Below are positions 176 to 7,363 of a stretch of DNA of 24,000 nt, one piece after another. How positions within the stretch are numbered: the stretch's first letter is position 1; each line of letters opens with the position of its first letter. This stretch comes from an uncultured Anaeroplasmataceae bacterium (GTDB taxonomy: Bacteria; Bacillota_I; Bacilli_A; Acholeplasmatales; Anaeroplasmataceae): positions 83,681-107,680 of the forward strand of contig CAJTXR010000002.1 in NCBI GenBank assembly GCA_910584005.1, in the 5' to 3' direction. The notes under the pieces were generated by a model. It had not been told where the DNA came from. It ran no database searches and saw nothing but the letters and a program-made list of their open reading frames with translations. The position numbers and the translations under genes were made by a program.

Positions 176-553
176 ATGTTAGAGTTTTTTGAATATGATC
201 AGTTATCTGGCTTTGCAAGCATCTATGATAGTCATATAACTTTGAATAAAACTCTTTTGAATTATTTAACAGATGCGTATCGAGTAAGAGTTGCGGTGAA
301 TAAAGAAAAAAATGAAATTCAAATTTACACAATTAATAAAGATTATGCATTGAGTGGAGAGTTAAATGAAGCATCCCTTTTGCCTGTTTCTATTTCTAAG
401 ACATATGCTAGAATATGTTCTAGACCTTTGATTGAGTATTTATCTAAGGCATTCAATCTAAGTATAGAAAAAAAAGAATTTAAAAGGTATCCAGCATGTT
501 ATAATAAAGAGAAAAAGGTAATAATAATTAATATGGAGAAAGAGGTGTCATAA
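176..553 (+). CDS. Hypothetical 125-aa cytoplasmic protein with an apparent internal duplication; first gene of the operon
   Basis: ATG at 176 sits 8 nt after AAGGAGG (161-167). The track start at 113 has no RBS and overlaps the promoter. Two motifs are each repeated: ITLNKT / VSISKT and NKEKNEIQI / NKEKKVIII. The stop overlaps the next start (TAATG at 551-555). Confidence 0.6.
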   Translation: MLEFFEYDQLSGFASIYDSHITLNKTLLNYLTDAYRVRVAVNKEKNEIQIYTINKDYALSGELNEASLLPVSISKTYARICSRPLIEYLSKAFNLSIEKKEFKRYPACYNKEKKVIIINMEKEVS

Positions 554-996
554 TGGAAGCTTATATGGTATGGATATGGTTAGGGGTATTCATTATTACA
601 GTTATCATTGAGTCTTTGACGCAGGAATTAGTTTCTATTTGGTTTTCTTTAGGATCAGTTATTGCATTGATTTTATCTGCTTTTCCAAACATCAGTTGGT
701 ATGTGGAATTAGTTGTTTTTACAATTGTTTCACTTTTGACTCTTGCTTTAACAAGACCGTTCGTAAAAAAATTGTTGTTCAACGCAATCCGTTATACCAA
801 TGTAGATGAATTTGTCGGTAAAAGAGTCAAAGTGGTTTCTGACATTTCAAAGTTTGAAAATGGAGAAGTTAAAATCCATGATATAATTTATCATGCGAGT
901 TTAATGGAAGAAGAAACAGAAACCATCAAAAAAGATGAAATTGTAGAAATTGTTACTCTTAAGGGAAATAAAGTTATTGTGAAAAAAATTAATTAA
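553..996 (+). CDS. NfeD-family membrane protein (short form: N-terminal TM helices plus a C-terminal OB-like beta domain)
   Basis: RBS GAGGTG (542-547). About three hydrophobic helices are followed by a soluble C-terminus (GKRVKVVSDISKFENGEVKIHDIIYHA...IVEIVTLKGNKVIVKKI) typical of NfeD. It lies immediately upstream of an SPFH gene, the canonical arrangement. Confidence 0.8.
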   Translation: MEAYMVWIWLGVFIITVIIESLTQELVSIWFSLGSVIALILSAFPNISWYVELVVFTIVSLLTLALTRPFVKKLLFNAIRYTNVDEFVGKRVKVVSDISKFENGEVKIHDIIYHASLMEEETETIKKDEIVEIVTLKGNKVIVKKIN

Positions 997-1016
997 TATA
1001 GGAGGAAGTTATATTT

Positions 1017-1976
1017 ATGGGATTAATTTTAGGAATCAATTCGGGTATTATTGCCGCAATTGTATTAAGTGTTTTAGGTTTAGTTATTTTAATTTTATTA
1101 ATTACAAGAATTAAAATTGTTCGTCAAACTCAAAAATTAATTATTGAAAGATTAGGGGCTTACCATGCCACTTGGTCAGTAGGGTTTCACTTTTTATTAC
1201 CTTTTATTGATCGTGTTGCTCAAGTAGTTTCTATGAAAGAACAGGTTAGTGACTTTGATCCTCAACCAGTAATTACAAAGGATAATGTTACTATGCAAAT
1301 TGATACGGTTGTTTTCTTTCAAATTACAGATCCAAAGTTATATTCATATGGTGTGGAAAACCCTATTGCAGCATTAGAAAATTTATCTTCAACGACTTTA
1401 CGTAATATCATTGGTGAATTAGATTTAGATGAAACCTTAACTTCACGTGATATTATAAATACAAAGATGCGTTCTATTTTAGATGAAGCTACAGATCCAT
1501 GGGGAATTAAAGTTAATCGTGTAGAGGTAAAAAACATTCTACCTCCAAAGGATATCCGGGAAGCAATGGAACGCCAAATGCGTGCAGAGCGTGAGCGTCG
1601 TGAGAAAATCTTATTAGCTGAAGGAGAAAAGCGGAGCCAAATTCTTCAAGCTGAAGGTGAAAGAGAATCTCAAATTTTAAGAGCTGATGCAGAAAAGCAA
1701 GCAATCATTAAAAAAGCAGAAGCTGAAGCAGAGTCTATTTTGAAAGTGAAATCTGCAGAAGCTGAAGGTGTTAGATTAACTCGTCAAGCTCAAGCGGATG
1801 GTTATAAAATGCTTGTTGAAGCAGGAGTAACAAAAGAAGTTTTAGCAATTAAATCATTTGAAACATTTGAAAAAGTATCTGATGGTCAATCTACAAAGAT
1901 TATTATCCCTTCTAATATGCAAGATTTAGCTTCTACAATTGCAGGAGTTGCTGAAGTTGTAAAAGACAAAAAATAA
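1017..1976 (+). CDS. SPFH/band-7 (stomatin/QmcA-like) membrane scaffold protein
   Basis: N-terminal TM helix, then IVRQTQKLIIERLGAYH...LLPFIDRV...VITKDNV...VVFFQITDP...RVEVKNILPP, then a Glu/Ala/Arg-rich coiled coil (RAERERREKILLAEGEKRSQILQAEGE...). This is the classical stomatin-type SPFH signature. RBS AGGAGG at 1000-1005. Confidence 0.9.
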   Translation: MGLILGINSGIIAAIVLSVLGLVILILLITRIKIVRQTQKLIIERLGAYHATWSVGFHFLLPFIDRVAQVVSMKEQVSDFDPQPVITKDNVTMQIDTVVFFQITDPKLYSYGVENPIAALENLSSTTLRNIIGELDLDETLTSRDIINTKMRSILDEATDPWGIKVNRVEVKNILPPKDIREAMERQMRAERERREKILLAEGEKRSQILQAEGERESQILRADAEKQAIIKKAEAEAESILKVKSAEAEGVRLTRQAQADGYKMLVEAGVTKEVLAIKSFETFEKVSDGQSTKIIIPSNMQDLASTIAGVAEVVKDKK

Positions 1977-1993
1977 ACTGCGGAGGGATATAC

Positions 1994-3346
1994 ATGAGAT
2001 TAGGTAAGTACTTAAAAGGGTGTAATGAGGTATATCATACCACATTTGATCCGCGAAAGACTAGTGCCATCCGAATTCATTTAGTTCCACCGAAAAAACC
2101 CAAGGCAGGCATACCTTGGGTTGTTGTCTTAAATGGATATGCTATTCTTCCTTTACAGACTTCATGGGCAATTTTATTAAAAGAATTTATGGAAGAGTTA
2201 AATGAAACAGATGGAATTGGTTTAACAGATGAGGATATAGATGAGCTGATTTCAAAAACGATTTTACGTGTGAAAAAGGTATTTACAAAGACAGATAAGG
2301 AAATCATAAAAAAAGATTTAGCTCAAATTGTTTTAACTTTAAAAGACGTTGCGTTTGGGAAAGAGCCAAACGAGGCTATTGGGTATATGAGCCTTTCTAC
2401 ATATGCAAAATATATGCAAGCTCCTCATCGCATGGATTTAATGGTTTCTGCAATGGAAAAAGAAGGTCAATGGCATTGCAATCAACATTGTCTTCATTGC
2501 TATGCTGCAAATGAAAAAAAGTCCAATGAAAAAGAATGCACAACAGATGAATGGAAACAAATGATTGATGCATGTAAAAAAGCATGTATTCCAGCTCTTA
2601 CGTTTACAGGTGGAGAAGCAACCTTGCGAGAAGATTTAGTAGAATTAATTAAATATTCACAATGGTTCGTTACTAGATTAAATACAAATGGGATTTTGTT
2701 AACAAAAAAATTATGTGAAGAATTATATGAGGCTAGCCTAGATAGTGTGCAAATTACTTTGTATTCTTTTGATCCTGCAATTCACAATACATTAGTTGGT
2801 GGAGATCACTTTAATCAAACTGTCTTAGGAATTAAAAATGCAATTGCTGCTGGGTTAGATGTGAGTATCAATACCCCTCTATGCAGTCTAAATCGTGAAT
2901 ATAAAAAAACGGTTCATTTTGCTGCGAGTCTTGGAGTTCATTATTTCTCTTGCTCAGGCTTAATTCCTACGGGAAATGCGAAACGCGATGAATCTAGTAT
3001 TACAGCTTTAAGTAAAGCAGATATTTTACAGGTAGTAAAGGATGCTGTTATTTACGGCAGAGATCATCAGTTGGATATCGCTTTTACATCTCCAGGCTGG
3101 ATCAAAGAAGCTGACTTAAAACAATTAAACCTTGTTGTACCATCTTGTGGGGCCTGTTTATCTAATATGGCCATTGCACCCAATGGAGATGTAATTCCCT
3201 GTCAGTCATGGTTAAATGGAATTACCTTAGGAAATATTTTGAAAAATGATTGGAAATCCATTTGGAATCATAAAGAATCATTACGAATACGGAATATGGC
3301 GAGTAAGACCCAACAAACTTGCTTGTTAAAACAGGAGGTAAAATAA
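1994..3346 (+). CDS. Radical SAM enzyme with an N-terminal extension of about 160 aa and a C-terminal Twitch/partial-SPASM auxiliary-cluster motif
   Basis: CX3CX2C = C162-N-Q-H-C166-L-H-C169 (2477-2500). GGE-type SAM motif TFTGGEATL. C-terminal CGAC-x9-G-DVIP-C (3146-3202) matches CX9-15GX4C, with one further Cys (C443). The CX2CX5CX3C block of a full SPASM domain is not seen. RBS GGAGGG at 1982-1987. Confidence 0.85.
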   Translation: MRLGKYLKGCNEVYHTTFDPRKTSAIRIHLVPPKKPKAGIPWVVVLNGYAILPLQTSWAILLKEFMEELNETDGIGLTDEDIDELISKTILRVKKVFTKTDKEIIKKDLAQIVLTLKDVAFGKEPNEAIGYMSLSTYAKYMQAPHRMDLMVSAMEKEGQWHCNQHCLHCYAANEKKSNEKECTTDEWKQMIDACKKACIPALTFTGGEATLREDLVELIKYSQWFVTRLNTNGILLTKKLCEELYEASLDSVQITLYSFDPAIHNTLVGGDHFNQTVLGIKNAIAAGLDVSINTPLCSLNREYKKTVHFAASLGVHYFSCSGLIPTGNAKRDESSITALSKADILQVVKDAVIYGRDHQLDIAFTSPGWIKEADLKQLNLVVPSCGACLSNMAIAPNGDVIPCQSWLNGITLGNILKNDWKSIWNHKESLRIRNMASKTQQTCLLKQEVK

Positions 3347-4314
3347 TGAAAAAAATTTACTACTGTTTTTGTTTGGTTGTATTCTTGTTTTTAACCTCTT
3401 GTCAGGATAAAATAGAACCTCTAGATGAAATAGAAGAATATATAATTCATATAGCCCCAACAGAAGAAGGGAATCTTCAAATGAATTATAAAATTGTTTG
3501 GAAAGTTTTAAATTCAGAAAAAGAAGGGCCATTAGAGTGGGTAAAAATTGGTATTCCTAATTATCATATTCAATCTTTAACTAGTCAAAGTTCTTCTATA
3601 AAAGATATCAGTGTTTCCTCAGATGATGGTGCGTATGTTAGAATCAATTTAGATAGATCCTATTATGCAGAAGAAACAGTTACTATGGAGTTTTCTTTTC
3701 TTCAAACCCATATTTACTCCTTAAAAAAAGAAGAGGTACAATATCGGATTATTCCAGGCTGGTTTGATGAAATACAAGTTAAGCAATTAATCGTTTATTG
3801 GGAAAAGAAAGATGTTATAAGCGAGAATTCAAATTCAAATGATGATAAATATTATATTTGGAGTACTTCTTTAGATTTTGGAGAGAGCATTCAAGTGGAT
3901 ATACAGTATAATGCGTCATCCTTTACAAATTTATCAAAGAATAATGCGGTACCTAAGAATTACGATCAGTGGATTATTGTTGCAGTTGTAAGTATAATTT
4001 TATTATTTGTGGTTATTATTCTTATATTCAATTGGCTGAGAAGAGATGAGTATTATACTTATCGTGGGTTTAGTGGAAGAAATTTTCATCATCACCATTG
4101 GTGGTGGTACTCCTCAGGAGTGAATCATCATGGAGATCGTATTCAAGATCCAAGAATTATAAATCGGGGTTCATCTCATTCTGGTGGATCTTCTTGTGCC
4201 TGTGCTTGTGCATGTGCCTGTGCTGGTGGTGGAAGAGCAGGATGCTCAAGAAAAGATTTTTATTCTAATGATTCAGAAATGGACCAGTTACTTTCTAAAT
4301 TAAATCAAAAATAA
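3346..4314 (+). CDS. Lipoprotein-type single-pass membrane protein with a His/Trp/Cys-rich cytoplasmic tail; function unknown
   Basis: ATG at 3346 overlaps the radical SAM stop (TAATG), with AGGAGG at 3333-3338. The track start at 3319 is an in-frame upstream extension. Signal peptide with lipobox LTSC (Cys19 at 3400-3402). Ectodomain of about 190 aa. TM helix WIIVAVVSIILLFVVIILIFNWL (3970-4038). Tail begins RRDEYY and contains HHHHWWW (4087-4107) and SSCACACACACAGGGRAGCS. Confidence 0.75.
   Translation: MKKIYYCFCLVVFLFLTSCQDKIEPLDEIEEYIIHIAPTEEGNLQMNYKIVWKVLNSEKEGPLEWVKIGIPNYHIQSLTSQSSSIKDISVSSDDGAYVRINLDRSYYAEETVTMEFSFLQTHIYSLKKEEVQYRIIPGWFDEIQVKQLIVYWEKKDVISENSNSNDDKYYIWSTSLDFGESIQVDIQYNASSFTNLSKNNAVPKNYDQWIIVAVVSIILLFVVIILIFNWLRRDEYYTYRGFSGRNFHHHHWWWYSSGVNHHGDRIQDPRIINRGSSHSGGSSCACACACACAGGGRAGCSRKDFYSNDSEMDQLLSKLNQK
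4195..4224 (+). repeat. Five tandem TGTGCN hexanucleotides encoding (Cys-Ala)x5 within the lipoprotein tail
   Basis: TGTGCC TGTGCT TGTGCA TGTGCC TGTGCT, in frame with the CDS starting at 3346, followed by GGTGGTGGA (GGG). Confidence 0.9.
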
Positions 4315-4329
4315 TTAGGAGAAAAACTT

Positions 4330-5097
4330 ATGGAAGTTTTAGTTGAATTCTTTGTAGAGATATTTTTAGAAATCTTTTTTGAGATTGGTGGAGTTGTAAT
4401 TTCTAAAATTGCCATTGATAAAAGAAAAAGAAAAATTACAAAGTATTGTATTTCCTTTTTTGTGTTTGCTTGTTGTTTATCTTTAATCATTTATTCTCTA
4501 ATTGTTAAAAAAATGTTATATGTTCAATTAGCTATGGCTTATTTTTTAGGATTATTGGTATGCTATATTTTAGAATTTATTAATAAAAATATGATTTACT
4601 CAAAAAAATTGGGAAAAGTTCTGCTTTACATTAAAAGAGGAATTCATTATGTATTTCCTATCCTTGTCATCACCCTCGTAAACATATATAAGACAGACCA
4701 ATCTGTATTGATTACCTGTTTAGCAGTTGTGGTACTTGTTTTGTATTTTGGAGTTATCCTTTACCGAATTACTTATCGCGATACATATTCTAATTTCAAA
4801 AGAAGAGCGAAAAAATTTCTTAAGGATTTTCAAGAATCTGAAGATGAAAAATATTTTGAATCCTTGCTGAAATTATCGGAAAAAAGTCCATCTTACCTGT
4901 TGAAATGGATAGAAGAATGTACGAAAAAAGAGGTAAATCCGATTTTAAAATTTATTATATTTAGTGAGAGATATTGTACACAAGAATTTTATGATGTTCT
5001 TCAAGATATAGCAGACAAGTATAATTTAAATATTGAAAGCGAATTATTAGAATTTAAAAATAAATTTATAGAAGAAAGTGAACCTGAAATTTATTAG
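4330..5097 (+). CDS. Polytopic membrane protein with a C-terminal soluble helical domain; function unknown; last gene of the operon
   Basis: RBS AGGAG (4316-4320). Acidic amphipathic N-terminus (MEVLVEFFVEIFLEIFFEIGG), about 4-5 hydrophobic helices, then a charged C-terminal domain of about 100 aa. Followed directly by a terminator. Confidence 0.65.
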   Translation: MEVLVEFFVEIFLEIFFEIGGVVISKIAIDKRKRKITKYCISFFVFACCLSLIIYSLIVKKMLYVQLAMAYFLGLLVCYILEFINKNMIYSKKLGKVLLYIKRGIHYVFPILVITLVNIYKTDQSVLITCLAVVVLVLYFGVILYRITYRDTYSNFKRRAKKFLKDFQESEDEKYFESLLKLSEKSPSYLLKWIEECTKKEVNPILKFIIFSERYCTQEFYDVLQDIADKYNLNIESELLEFKNKFIEESEPEIY

Positions 5098-5101
5098 CTT
5101 T

Positions 5102-5136
5102 AAAAAAAATCACTTTGAATTGAAAGTGATTTTTTA
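5102..5136. terminator. Rho-independent terminator ending the six-gene operon (A-tract/T-tract flanked, potentially bidirectional)
   Basis: AAAAAAAA + stem ATCACTTT (5109-5116), loop GAATTG, stem AAAGTGAT (5123-5130), then TTTTT. Confidence 0.8.
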
Positions 5137-5267: not shown

Positions 5268-6587
5268 ATGAAAAAGAAATACTTAGATATTAATGTATAT
5301 GAAAGCCTATTAAATCGATTAAAATTCATTTTTGAGGAATTTGAGAATATCTTTGTATCTTTTTCAGGAGGAAAAGATAGCGGATTACTATTAGAACTGG
5401 TTTTAGACTTTCAAAAGAAGCATTACCCTCATCGCAAAATTGGTGTATTCCATCAGGACTTTGAAGCTCAATATTCCTACACAACAAAATATGTAGAAGA
5501 AACATTTGAACGAATCAAAGATGAAGCAGAGCTATATTGGGTATGCTTGCCAATGGCTACTAGAACAGCACTGAGTAATTATGAAATGTTTTGGTATCCT
5601 TGGGATGACAAAGCCAAAGATATATGGGTAAGACCTATTCCAAACCATGAATATGTAATTACTTTAGAAAATAATCCAATTACAACCTATAAGTATCGTA
5701 TGCATCAAGAAGATCTTGCGAAGCAATTTGGTAGATGGTATAAACTATCTCATGGGGATACATCAACCATCTGCTTATTAGGAATTCGAGCAGATGAATC
5801 CTTACAACGATATAATGGTTTTTTAAATAAAAAAAGAGGATATAAGCATAATTGTTATATTACTCAACAATTTAAAAATGTATGGTGTGCCTCTCCGCTT
5901 TATGATTGGAGTGTTCAGGATGTATGGCATGCGATTGCCAAAAATGGATATACCTATAATCAATTATATGATATGCTTTATTTGGCAGGAGTTAAACCAA
6001 CCCAAATGAGAGTAGCTTCTCCTTTTAATGATTACGCTAAGGATTGTCTAAATTTATATCGTGTGATAGAACCTGAAACATGGACTAAATTATTAGGTAG
6101 AGTTAAAGGCGTAAATTTTGCTTGTATATATGGACGGACAAAAGCCTTAGGATATCGCAATATTACACTGCCTGAAGGTCATACATGGGAATCTTATACA
6201 AAGTTTTTACTCTCCACATTGCCAAGAAGGATTAGGAACAATTATATTAAAAAATTTAAAACATCAATTGATTTTTGGCATACAATTGGTGGTGGTCTTG
6301 AAGAAGAAACAATTAAAGAGTTAGAGGAGCATGGATATTTAATTCGTAGAAATGGAGTTTCAAATTATACTATTTTTAGAAATTCTAGAATTGTATTTAT
6401 GTGTAAGATACCTGATCATACAGATGATATTAAATCCACAAAGGATATCCCTAGCTGGAAAAGAATGTGTTATTGTATATTGAAAAATGATCATATTTGC
6501 AGATCTATGGGATTTGGACTCACTCGAGATCAGCAAAATAAAATAAAAATGATAAAAGAAAAATATGATGGATTGGAGGAATTATAA
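5268..6587 (+). CDS. PAPS-reductase-like PP-loop ATP pyrophosphatase with a long C-terminal extension (IbrA-like / DndC-like)
   Basis: PP-loop SGGKDS (5364-5381) within FVSFSGGKDSGLLLELV. The central LLGIRADES region is typical of the PAPS reductase fold. The extra C-terminal region of about 200 aa matches the architecture I associate with the DUF3440-type IbrA family. RBS AAGGAG at 5255-5260. Confidence 0.8.
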   Translation: MKKKYLDINVYESLLNRLKFIFEEFENIFVSFSGGKDSGLLLELVLDFQKKHYPHRKIGVFHQDFEAQYSYTTKYVEETFERIKDEAELYWVCLPMATRTALSNYEMFWYPWDDKAKDIWVRPIPNHEYVITLENNPITTYKYRMHQEDLAKQFGRWYKLSHGDTSTICLLGIRADESLQRYNGFLNKKRGYKHNCYITQQFKNVWCASPLYDWSVQDVWHAIAKNGYTYNQLYDMLYLAGVKPTQMRVASPFNDYAKDCLNLYRVIEPETWTKLLGRVKGVNFACIYGRTKALGYRNITLPEGHTWESYTKFLLSTLPRRIRNNYIKKFKTSIDFWHTIGGGLEEETIKELEEHGYLIRRNGVSNYTIFRNSRIVFMCKIPDHTDDIKSTKDIPSWKRMCYCILKNDHICRSMGFGLTRDQQNKIKMIKEKYDGLEEL

Positions 6588-7153
6588 TGGAGTTTAAAAG
6601 TCCTGTTTACAATATTAGATCGGTTCCGATTGAAAAGATTGATCCTAATGATTATAATCCAAATTCTGTTGCACCTCCAGAGATGAGGTTACTTTATGAT
6701 AGTATCAAAGAAGACGGATATACGATGCCAATTGTTTGTTACTATAATAAAGCTGAAGATCGTTATATTATAGTTGATGGGTTTCATCGCTATCGAGTAA
6801 TGCTTGAATATCAAGATATTTATGAAAGAGAAAAAGGATTACTCCCTGTATCTGTTATAGACAAGCCATTAGAAAAGAGGATGGCAAGTACAATTCGGCA
6901 TAATCGGGCTCGCGGGACTCATAATGTAGATTTAATGAGTAATATTATTAGTGAACTTCATGAACTTGGACGTTCTGATGCTTGGATTTCTAAGCATTTA
7001 GGAATGGAAAAGGATGAAATATTGCGTTTAAAACAAATCACGGGTCTTTCAAAATTATTTCAAGATGTTGAATTTGGAAAAAGTTGGATTCCTGAAGATG
7101 ATTTTGATATGAACTTTGAAAAAGAAGAAGAGTATTTAGTTGGAAGTAAATAA
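6587..7153 (+). CDS. ParB/sulfiredoxin-like N-terminal domain protein (IbrB-like / DndB-related)
   Basis: The start overlaps the upstream stop (TAATG at 6585-6589), with GGAGGA at 6575-6580. ParB-N motifs: PNDYNPNSV, IIVDGFHRY (DGxHR at 6776-6790), and the Arg-rich IRHNRARGTH. Confidence 0.8.
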   Translation: MEFKSPVYNIRSVPIEKIDPNDYNPNSVAPPEMRLLYDSIKEDGYTMPIVCYYNKAEDRYIIVDGFHRYRVMLEYQDIYEREKGLLPVSVIDKPLEKRMASTIRHNRARGTHNVDLMSNIISELHELGRSDAWISKHLGMEKDEILRLKQITGLSKLFQDVEFGKSWIPEDDFDMNFEKEEEYLVGSK

Positions 7154-7198: not shown

Positions 7199-7275
7199 TG
7201 GCGCACCCTAGAGGATTCGAACCCCTAACCTTTTGATCCGTAGTCAAACGATCTATCCAATTGATCTAAGGGTGC
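7199..7275 (-). tRNA. tRNA-Arg (anticodon ACG), CCA encoded
   Basis: The reverse complement folds into a full cloverleaf: acceptor GCACCCT/AGGGTGC, D stem GATC/GATC, anticodon stem TTTGA/TCAAA with loop CTACGGA, T arm AGGGG-TTCGAAT-CCTCT, then GCCA at the 3' end. Confidence 0.95.
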
Positions 7276-7287
7276 AAGCTTTTCTAA

Positions 7288-7363
7288 TGGCGGTTCGGAC
7301 GGGACTTGAACCCGCGATCTCCAGTGTGACAGACTAGCATGTTAACCACTACACCACCGAACC
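7288..7363 (-). tRNA. tRNA-Asp (anticodon GTC), CCA encoded
   Basis: Reverse complement GGTTCGGTGGTGTAGTGGTTAACATGCTAGTCTGTCACACTGGAGATCGCGGGTTCAAGTCCCGTCCGAACCGCCA. Acceptor GGTTCGG/CCGAACC, anticodon stem CTAGT/ACTGG, loop CTGTCAC, T loop TTCAAGT. Confidence 0.95.

Follow-up and report, generated by a model that had tools for sequence, protein, structure and literature searches.

A radical S-adenosylmethionine enzyme paired with a membrane protein that carries an invariant cysteine–alanine tail motif: a putative enzyme–substrate cassette of gut bacteria

In several described systems a radical S-adenosylmethionine (SAM) enzyme of the SPASM/twitch type, equipped with an N-terminal peptide-binding domain, is encoded beside its Cys-rich target; SkfB/SkfA, CteB/CteA, PapB/PapA and the SCIFF system are organized in this way. 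Another radical SAM/SPASM enzyme, QhpD, cross-links Cys to Asp or Glu in QhpC, which is small, soluble and periplasmic and belongs to a known enzyme, quinohemoprotein amine dehydrogenase, as one of its subunits. We analysed a stretch of 24,000 nucleotides (hereafter, the window) of contig CAJTXR010000002.1 from an uncultured Anaeroplasmataceae bacterium, in which six genes, here numbered 1 to 6, follow each other on the + strand between positions 176 and 5097. Genes 4 and 5 encode, respectively, a radical SAM enzyme whose predicted domain layout resembles that of the enzymes of the first group and a membrane lipoprotein with a Cys-rich tail. We found that the conserved unit consists of genes 4 and 5 only, a self-contained two-gene cassette that is widespread and occurs in hundreds of gut bacteria. 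We consider it somewhat probable that the two are enzyme and substrate: the Cys-rich tail would be modified by the enzyme, plausibly through thioether cross-links, and the product would stay tethered to the membrane. The features of the cassette, in window coordinates, are listed below.

1994–3346, + strand: gene 4, radical SAM enzyme of 450 residues (PF04055, 67.3 bits, cut-off 29.5; PF13186, 36.4 bits, cut-off 21.5)
1994–2398, + strand: N-terminal domain of gene 4, residues 1–135, modelled by AlphaFold2 as four strands followed by three helices; conserved RIHLVPP and NGY..LPLQ.SWA.LL
2477–2500, + strand: CNQHCLHC (CX3CX2C; Cys162, Cys166 and Cys169) for the radical SAM [4Fe-4S] cluster, invariant in alignment A1 (22 gene 4 relatives)
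3146–3322, + strand: auxiliary-cluster region of gene 4 with Cys385, Cys388, Cys403 and Cys443, and with Cys320 upstream (alignment A1)
3346–4314, + strand: gene 5, bitopic membrane lipoprotein of 322 residues, partner of gene 4 in 80 of 80 loci
3346–3402, + strand: signal peptide of gene 5 with the lipobox L-T-S-C (Cys19), read from the sequence
3403–3960, + strand: extracytoplasmic all-beta sandwich of gene 5, residues 27–190 (AlphaFold2; predicted local distance difference test score, pLDDT, mostly above 90)
3961–4038, + strand: single transmembrane helix of gene 5, residues 206–231, followed by juxtamembrane Y-x3-R-G-F (AlphaFold2 and alignment A2, of gene 5 homologues)
4195–4263, + strand: invariant tail motif CACACACACAGGGRAGCSRKDFY of gene 5, residues 284–306, (TGYGCN)5-encoded; proposed modification site (alignment A2)

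We analysed the surroundings of gene 4 in other bacteria by scanning one genome per species, which yielded at least 452 stretches encoding a relative. The neighbourhood counts given here cover the best 80 of these, each from a different species (loci are designated by L numbers); 69 of the 80 hold at least 3 kb upstream of gene 4. The hosts are Clostridia (Lachnospiraceae and Oscillospiraceae), Bacilli (Anaeroplasma, Acholeplasmatales and Solobacterium) and two metagenome-assembled genomes, of a Treponema and of a member of the Coriobacteriaceae. Homologues were detected in the loci by tblastn, and a phmmer search against all open reading frames (ORFs) of the loci agreed. A gene 5 homologue lay downstream of gene 4 on the same strand in all 80 loci, and directly next to it in 79, the remaining one (L078) having one intervening ORF. 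All-against-all clustering of 1013 flanking ORFs revealed no conserved family besides the enzyme and gene 5; an ABC transporter came next, with 12 sources, and the immediate neighbours of the pair varied in both family and strand. Even bacteria of the Anaeroplasma and Acholeplasmatales type retain the pair.

The same pairing was seen when we started from the membrane protein. A metagenome scan seeded with the tail motif gave 600 pattern matches, mostly without a gene 5 relative, and six confirmed loci, in all of which the enzyme was encoded directly upstream. Two of the six (L085 and L086) are distant branches of higher guanine–cytosine content, with enzymes only 29–32% identical to that of the window. 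Two further look-ups, from gene 5 homologues by exact sequence, found the enzyme upstream both times, in unrelated surroundings (one beside comEC/holA, the other beside genes for a surface protein and a methyltransferase). In the window itself, genes 4 and 5 overlap by 1 nucleotide (TAATG at 3344–3348), and an internal Shine–Dalgarno sequence accompanies this stop/start overlap, which together suggest that translation of the two genes is coupled. A preliminary description of the window had proposed that a cytoplasmic radical enzyme acts on the tail of a membrane-anchored partner. This part of it gains comparative support from the 80 of 80 loci, from the eight of eight reciprocal look-ups and from the invariance of the tail motif described below.

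Gene 5 homologues share a constant layout: after a signal peptide or lipobox come an all-beta domain of about 165 residues, a single transmembrane helix, the conserved juxtamembrane Y-x3-R-G-F and a low-complexity linker that varies, followed by the C-terminal motif. Some relatives have the lipobox and others an ordinary signal peptide. The protein of the window has the LTSC lipobox, one transmembrane helix and a tail rich in His, Trp and Cys, in agreement with the preliminary description. The signal peptide or lipobox, the single transmembrane helix and the positively charged juxtamembrane stretch place the tail in the cytoplasm, on the same side of the membrane as the enzyme. With its beta-sandwich turned outward, gene 5 is a type-I membrane protein or lipoprotein. 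With an E-value of about 1e-6, Foldseek matched the ectodomain to the luminal domain of ribophorin I/Ost1 and to the N-terminal domain of M1 aminopeptidases. No Pfam or NCBIfam model matched gene 5 or its distant relatives. A likeness to DUF2207-type proteins was rejected, as no DUF2207 match was found with gene 5 or its ectodomain (E up to 10) or with three distant relatives (E up to 0.05).

The consensus of the tail motif is CACACACAGGGRAGC[S/T]xKDFY. In alignment A2, where mean identity is 46%, the motif contains 15 consecutive invariant columns (C286-A-C-A-C-A-C-A-G-G-G-R-A-G-C300), plus K303 and D304. Of the 87 sources compared, the window plus 86 loci, 83 contain the motif; of the other four, three are cut by a contig end and one has a close variant. 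Its 13-codon core occurs in 83 distinct DNA versions in which every synonymous codon is used, indicating that selection acts on the motif peptide rather than on a DNA repeat. The two distant branches have CACACACAGGGAAGCAKK and CACACAGGGGAGCSRK as their motif, and from these forms we take the universal core to be alternating Cys-Ala, GGG, one variable residue and AGC. A PapB-like Cys-X3-Asp link, between C300 and D304, was rejected as the universal reaction, because the distant branches lack Asp304 and residue 304 is Asn in 10 of 83 sources.

The motif lies 8–42 residues from the C-terminus of gene 5, and the stretch between the membrane and the motif varies, so that the motif behaves as a tethered module. 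Indeed, in 23 of 67 homologues the linker contains a zinc-ribbon insert (CPxCG...CxYCG; Pfam Zn_ribbon_3) between the transmembrane helix and the motif. The carriers of this insert are Lachnospiraceae loci, including L026, L028, L029, L034 (2907–4154) and L035. At the DNA level, the Cys-Ala run of the window (4195–4224) is a (TGYGCN)n hexanucleotide repeat, and the number of Cys-Ala units ranges from about 3 to 7 between species. Several database proteins (P0329, P0354 and P0360) read it in another frame (for example ...FMCMCQQLCLCVCLC...); it is possible that slippage or assembly errors occur at the repeat.

The family is large. A word-index search with gene 5 returned 2987 relatives, of which the best 120 were listed without a Pfam domain and named only 'hypothetical protein'. 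When 1.84 billion representatives were scanned in full with HMMER (E ≤ 1e-3), the family comprised 764 clusters at 50% identity. Among the best 150 representatives, 110 had the strict motif and about 10 close variants; the others were mostly fragments, frameshifted Cys-Ala readings and tail-less forms. A tail-only protein search for other architectures gave 31 short matches, and the 13 of them that we read resemble fragments of the gene 5 family; none of these 13 appeared to be a small peptide that carries the motif by itself.

Gene 4 has thousands of full-length relatives, at 50–77% identity. The invariant CX3CX2C and the PF04055 match above the gathering score identify it as a radical SAM enzyme, as the preliminary description had it, and the PF13186 match adds a SPASM domain. 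We noted that only five Cys are kept in the C-terminal part and that the terminal CX2CX5CX3C is missing, the protein ending shortly past Cys443; this domain is therefore better called truncated SPASM/twitch-like. The distant homologues in L085 and L086 keep the full Cys set (CxxCx5CxxxC).

In the AlphaFold2 model of gene 4 (mean pLDDT 83.7), four strands and three helices precede the radical SAM barrel. Its best Foldseek matches in the Protein Data Bank (PDB) were SkfB, SuiB, CteB and TigE, which aligned over 435–486 columns, in contrast to enzymes without an N-terminal peptide-binding domain (anSME, PqqE, MoaA and viperin), where the alignment covered only about 300–340. SkfB was also the best sequence match among solved structures. 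The architecture of the enzyme is maturase-like. The strand-then-helix order of its N-terminal domain is that of the recognition elements (RREs) of peptides that are made by ribosomes and modified after translation (RiPPs), and from the model we infer that the domain is RRE-like; the Foldseek alignments, which reach across the N-terminal domains of SkfB, SuiB and CteB, favour this. It is unusually well conserved in alignment A1, which fits an invariant ligand. No NCBIfam model reached its cut-off with gene 4: NirJ2 scored 118 bits (cut-off 500), TIGR04133 81.1 (425), TIGR04340 (ACGX) 52.1 (400) and GeoRSP 99 (400). The enzyme of L085 behaved similarly, with 89.7 bits against the TIGR04133 cut-off of 425.

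Four features together point to an enzyme–substrate pair: the genes are strictly paired, the cytoplasmic motif is invariant and flexibly tethered, tail and enzyme lie on the same side of the membrane, and the enzyme is maturase-like. We infer that the tail of gene 5 is the substrate of gene 4. We propose that the N-terminal domain of gene 4 would dock onto the gene 5 tail, and that the radical SAM core would then take a hydrogen atom from the tail motif. The most plausible chemistry would be the formation of thioether cross-links, of the sactionine or ranthionine type, from the alternating Cys across the GGG turn. Such cross-linking would turn a disordered tail into a rigid element, which may bind metal or be redox-active. 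As no protease or exporter is conserved beside the pair, the product would remain on the membrane protein, without cleavage or export. The modified tail could serve as a rigid structural element, as a metal or redox site, or as a signalling switch tied to the ectodomain. More tentatively, the cassette may represent a widespread, unnamed class of post-translational modification, in which a dedicated radical SAM enzyme turns the invariant Cys-Ala tail motif, by cross-linking or another change, into a membrane-tethered RiPP-like element, possibly a metal/redox cofactor or an ectodomain-coupled signalling switch; this broader reading we hold to be possible rather than probable.

Several observations weigh against the tail as a substrate of a peptide maturase. 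On the side of the enzyme, gene 4 keeps five C-terminal Cys, not the full SPASM seven. Its N-terminal domain gave no PqqD or RRE sequence match (Pfam search with E up to 10 and a 17-member scan), the profile of this domain matched no PDB chain, and the likeness to RREs comes from the predicted topology and from Foldseek alignments of high root mean square deviation (8–15 Å). Moreover, the top NCBIfam matches include small-molecule enzymes (NirJ2 and AhbD) as much as peptide maturases. On the side of the target, the AlphaFold2 model leaves the gene 5 tail disordered, the two distant branches lack KDFY and R297, and some of the gene 5 paralogues that adjoin the pair end right after the transmembrane helix, without a tail; other adjoining paralogues have a motif of their own. 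Finally, a motif of alternating Cys might just be a binding site for metal or an Fe-S cluster, with no modification involved.

The last point leads to the strongest of the alternatives, in which the tail is an unmodified metal or Fe-S site and gene 5 serves as an anchor, an electron or cluster partner, a sensor or a regulator of the enzyme. At least five invariant Cys alternate with Ala and would lie on one face if the chain were an extended strand, beside a Gly turn, and many gene 5 members have His-rich stretches before the motif. In addition, the enzyme has lost part of the auxiliary-cluster Cys that its distant homologues retain. However, plain metal-binding tails normally need no dedicated, strictly co-inherited radical SAM enzyme, and the maturase-like architecture and the best structural matches favour peptide modification. 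The invariance of the motif also extends to residues that are not ligands (A, G, R, K, D, F and Y), which suits recognition by an enzyme better. We therefore consider an unmodified metal site unlikely.

It is also conceivable that the enzyme acts on a small molecule, such as a tetrapyrrole, a lipid or a cofactor, as NirJ, AhbD and Tes do, with gene 5 as a coupled receptor or transport-related protein. NirJ2 and AhbD gave the highest NCBIfam scores, the Tes model also matched, and GDGT-MAS, MoaA and BlsE were among the structural and sequence matches. All these NCBIfam scores are, however, far below their cut-offs (118 against 500 for NirJ2), no other pathway genes are conserved near the pair, and a small-molecule substrate would leave unexplained both the invariant cytoplasmic motif and the extra N-terminal domain. 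We regard this explanation as quite improbable.

Yet another view takes gene 5 as an unusually long RiPP precursor, from which the modified C-terminal peptide would be cleaved to act, once released, as a natural product or a signal. The distance of the motif from the C-terminus is reminiscent of a core peptide, and the enzyme does resemble RiPP maturases. Release is, however, hard to reconcile with a tail on the cytoplasmic side and with an ectodomain that is itself well conserved and confidently folded, and the clustering of flanking ORFs in the 80 loci found no conserved protease or exporter next to the pair. The short motif-bearing proteins in databases, as far as the 13 of 31 that were read are concerned, look like gene fragments. 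A released peptide is thus highly improbable, and a modified tail that stays on the membrane protein remains our preferred reading.

The preliminary description had gone further and suggested, as a candidate for an undescribed system, that the whole six-gene block is one module organized by a membrane microdomain. The remaining features of the block are as follows.

123–151, + strand: promoter-like TTGAAT-17-TATAAT upstream of gene 1, consensus match only
161–167, + strand: ribosome-binding site AAGGAGG, preceding the ATG at 176
176–553, + strand: gene 1, 125 residues, no family; travels with NfeD-SPFH in related genomes
553–996, + strand: gene 2, short membrane NfeD protein with a C-terminal NfeD domain (PF01957, 38 bits, cut-off 29.1)
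1017–1976, + strand: gene 3, SPFH/Band 7 protein, stomatin/HflK-like (PF01145, 140.5 bits, cut-off 23.6)
4330–5097, + strand: gene 6, polytopic membrane protein of 255 residues, no family; lineage-specific
5104–5135, + strand: AT-rich hairpin after gene 6, flanked by an A-run and a T-run (−12.8 kcal/mol, z = −4.19)

The layout of the block was as described before, at every coordinate and junction: six ORFs, all on the + strand between 176 and 5097, separated by gaps of 20, 17 and 15 nucleotides and by two 1-nucleotide overlaps, of which the one between genes 1 and 2 is TAATG at 551–555. Genes 2 and 3 are indeed an NfeD/SPFH pair, with NfeD directly upstream on the same strand at a distance of 20 nucleotides and both Pfam matches above cut-off; the HflK and HflC models match gene 3 below their own cut-offs. 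Genes 1, 5 and 6 gave no family in Pfam, NCBIfam, PHROGs and PADLOC scans. An internal duplication had been claimed for gene 1; BLASTP of its two halves gave no alignment and hence no support.

The signals around the block are largely where they had been placed. A promoter-like site was seen at 123–151, as reported; however, in this AT-rich window such sites are not enriched over shuffled sequences (33 observed against 37 expected), so that the site alone is weak evidence. Where a terminator had been assigned to 5102–5136, we found the hairpin at 5104–5135 with its U-run, which is likely to be the intrinsic terminator of the unit; the terminator scan missed it because it is AT-rich. Consistent with the earlier statement that the block lacks an internal terminator, the only + strand hairpin called within it, at 2097–2122, has no + strand T-run. 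This hairpin corresponds to a near-perfect 26-nucleotide palindrome (AACCCAAGG...CCTTGGGTT) within the coding sequence for the N-terminal domain of the enzyme. The six genes may well be co-transcribed in the window organism.

In the ORF list gene 1 begins at 113 and gene 5 at 3319, and the public call for gene 1 also uses the ATG at 113, giving 146 residues. The call from 113, which would take in the promoter-like site, is probably over-extended, because the start at 176 has the strong AAGGAGG and gives 125 residues, as in the called homologues. For gene 5, the start at 3346 is preceded by a Shine–Dalgarno sequence and agrees with the N-termini of homologues.

The neighbourhood survey separates the rest of the block from the cassette. 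NfeD, SPFH and gene 1 were found near gene 4 in one of the 80 loci (one of the 69 with at least 3 kb upstream), namely L017 of the Acholeplasmatales, where about 350 nucleotides lie between the SPFH gene and the enzyme gene. The homologues of genes 4 and 5 thus occur almost always away from NfeD/SPFH genes, and the proposed coupling to an NfeD/SPFH scaffold is not supported. Closer relatives do keep the order. The relative with a 77% identical enzyme (L091) keeps all six genes, and those with 71–72% identical enzymes have a 125-residue gene where gene 1 would be, then NfeD, SPFH and the enzyme, and lastly a gene about as long as gene 5. As the adjacency is kept only in close relatives and one Acholeplasmatales genome, it is best read, on comparative grounds, as synteny inherited within one lineage. 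Genes 1–3, separable from the cassette, amount to an NfeD/SPFH module of the ordinary kind plus one small companion gene. The 125-residue gene precedes NfeD-SPFH in four other loci (L017 5892–7655; L087 4198–5980; L090; L091 716–2513), and overlaps the NfeD gene in L087, L090 and L091. Its similarity to gene 1 was compared for L017 only, with 47% identity, L087, L090 and L091 being matched by length and position. Gene 1 may be a third component of the SPFH module.

Gene 6, also put forward earlier as a partner, was near gene 4 in none of the 80 loci. Its homologues were found only in L091 and L092, that is, in the relative with the 77% identical enzyme and in the window organism. Downstream of it, a PAPS-reductase/DUF3440 gene shares 1 base with a ParB_N gene (5268–7153, + strand); the two gave strong matches to the phage families phrog_2302 and phrog_2159 and weak matches to DndC/BrxP, and two tRNA genes follow directly (7202–7275 and 7291–7363, − strand). 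The relatives with 71–72% identical enzymes have LuxE/LuxC where the window has gene 6 and this pair, for which reason 5268–7153 looks like a variable or mobile insertion spot. By the same comparison, gene 6 appears to be lineage-specific, at the edge of the variable spot and outside the cassette. What stands of the proposed undescribed module, therefore, is the pair of genes 4 and 5; the six-gene cluster is a composite.

Accordingly, despite the tight one-strand packing between one promoter-like site and one hairpin, and the order of gene 1, NfeD, SPFH, enzyme and gene 5 kept in close relatives and one Acholeplasmatales genome, we give least credence to a single membrane-microdomain module, with SPFH/NfeD as scaffold or quality control for the enzyme and its membrane partners, in view of the one in 80 (one in 69) occurrence of NfeD, SPFH and gene 1, the absence of gene 6 from all 80 loci and the LuxE/LuxC in its place, the spacing in L017, and a literature that gives no functional link between NfeD/SPFH and radical SAM enzymes beyond a passing co-mention in work on iron deficiency in Bacteroidetes. 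Tight gene packing is misleading here, SPFH/NfeD and gene 6 being neighbours by lineage, not partners.

Some further observations concern the surroundings of the pair in other genomes. Extra gene 5 paralogues adjoin it in L014 (7032–7757), L025 (8443–9183 and 9147–10136) and L034 (35–1300, − strand), and may hint at hetero-oligomers. In two unrelated loci the gene 5 homologue has a tRNA gene just downstream (L010 10430–10503 and L024 10339–10418). No riboswitch or leader tied to the pair came up when the window and eight loci were scanned with Rfam; the SAM riboswitch of L024 (517–624) is about 7 kb off, on the opposite strand and unlinked to it.

A full-text literature search found no description of the tail motif, of the gene 4/5 pair or of a membrane-anchored precursor of this sort. 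Among known systems, the NfeD/SPFH stomatin operon accounts for genes 2 and 3, a standard pair unrelated to the cassette. anSME resembles gene 4 as a SPASM enzyme that acts on a Cys of a folded protein, and the cores of the two align structurally; however, anSME lacks the extra N-terminal domain, aligning over about 325 columns against 435–486 for the RRE-bearing maturases, and the sulfatase motif C-x-P/A-x-R, on direct reading, does not occur in the gene 5 tail. The in-silico pairs defined in NCBIfam (TIGR04133, whose radical SAM/SPASM protein goes with a lipoprotein, TIGR04340 ACGX, GeoRSP and His-Xaa-Ser) likewise have a SPASM enzyme strictly adjoining a protein with a short Cys-containing motif, invariant or repeated. 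Here the distinction is one of family, as gene 4 reaches 81, 52 and 99 bits with TIGR04133, TIGR04340 and GeoRSP, against cut-offs of 425, 400 and 400, and the gene 5 family matches no model.

As in QhpD/QhpC, a SPASM-type enzyme would place thioether cross-links in a target protein that the cell retains as a working part and does not secrete as a product. Unlike QhpC, gene 5 is a membrane protein, its motif core consists of Cys-Ala repeats and GGGxAGC, and there are no partner dehydrogenase genes. The closest resemblance is to the sactipeptide and ranthipeptide maturases, SkfB being the best match to gene 4 in both sequence and structure. Three differences set the cassette apart from these systems: the target is the tail of a membrane protein of about 320 residues with a folded ectodomain rather than a short leader–core peptide, no protease or exporter is conserved, and gene 4 scores far below the NCBIfam maturase cut-offs. 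Thioether chemistry, established for those systems, is only proposed here. If our reading is correct, RiPP-type radical SAM chemistry would reach beyond small secreted peptides, to an integral membrane protein and its cytoplasmic tail, and a large uncharacterized family, with 764 clusters and at least 452 genome stretches in gut and rumen Firmicutes and neither partner curated, would gain a handle. In this comparison the cassette would belong with the pairs of a radical SAM maturase and a Cys-rich target, and its new aspect would be that the target is the tail of a membrane protein, in no curated family.

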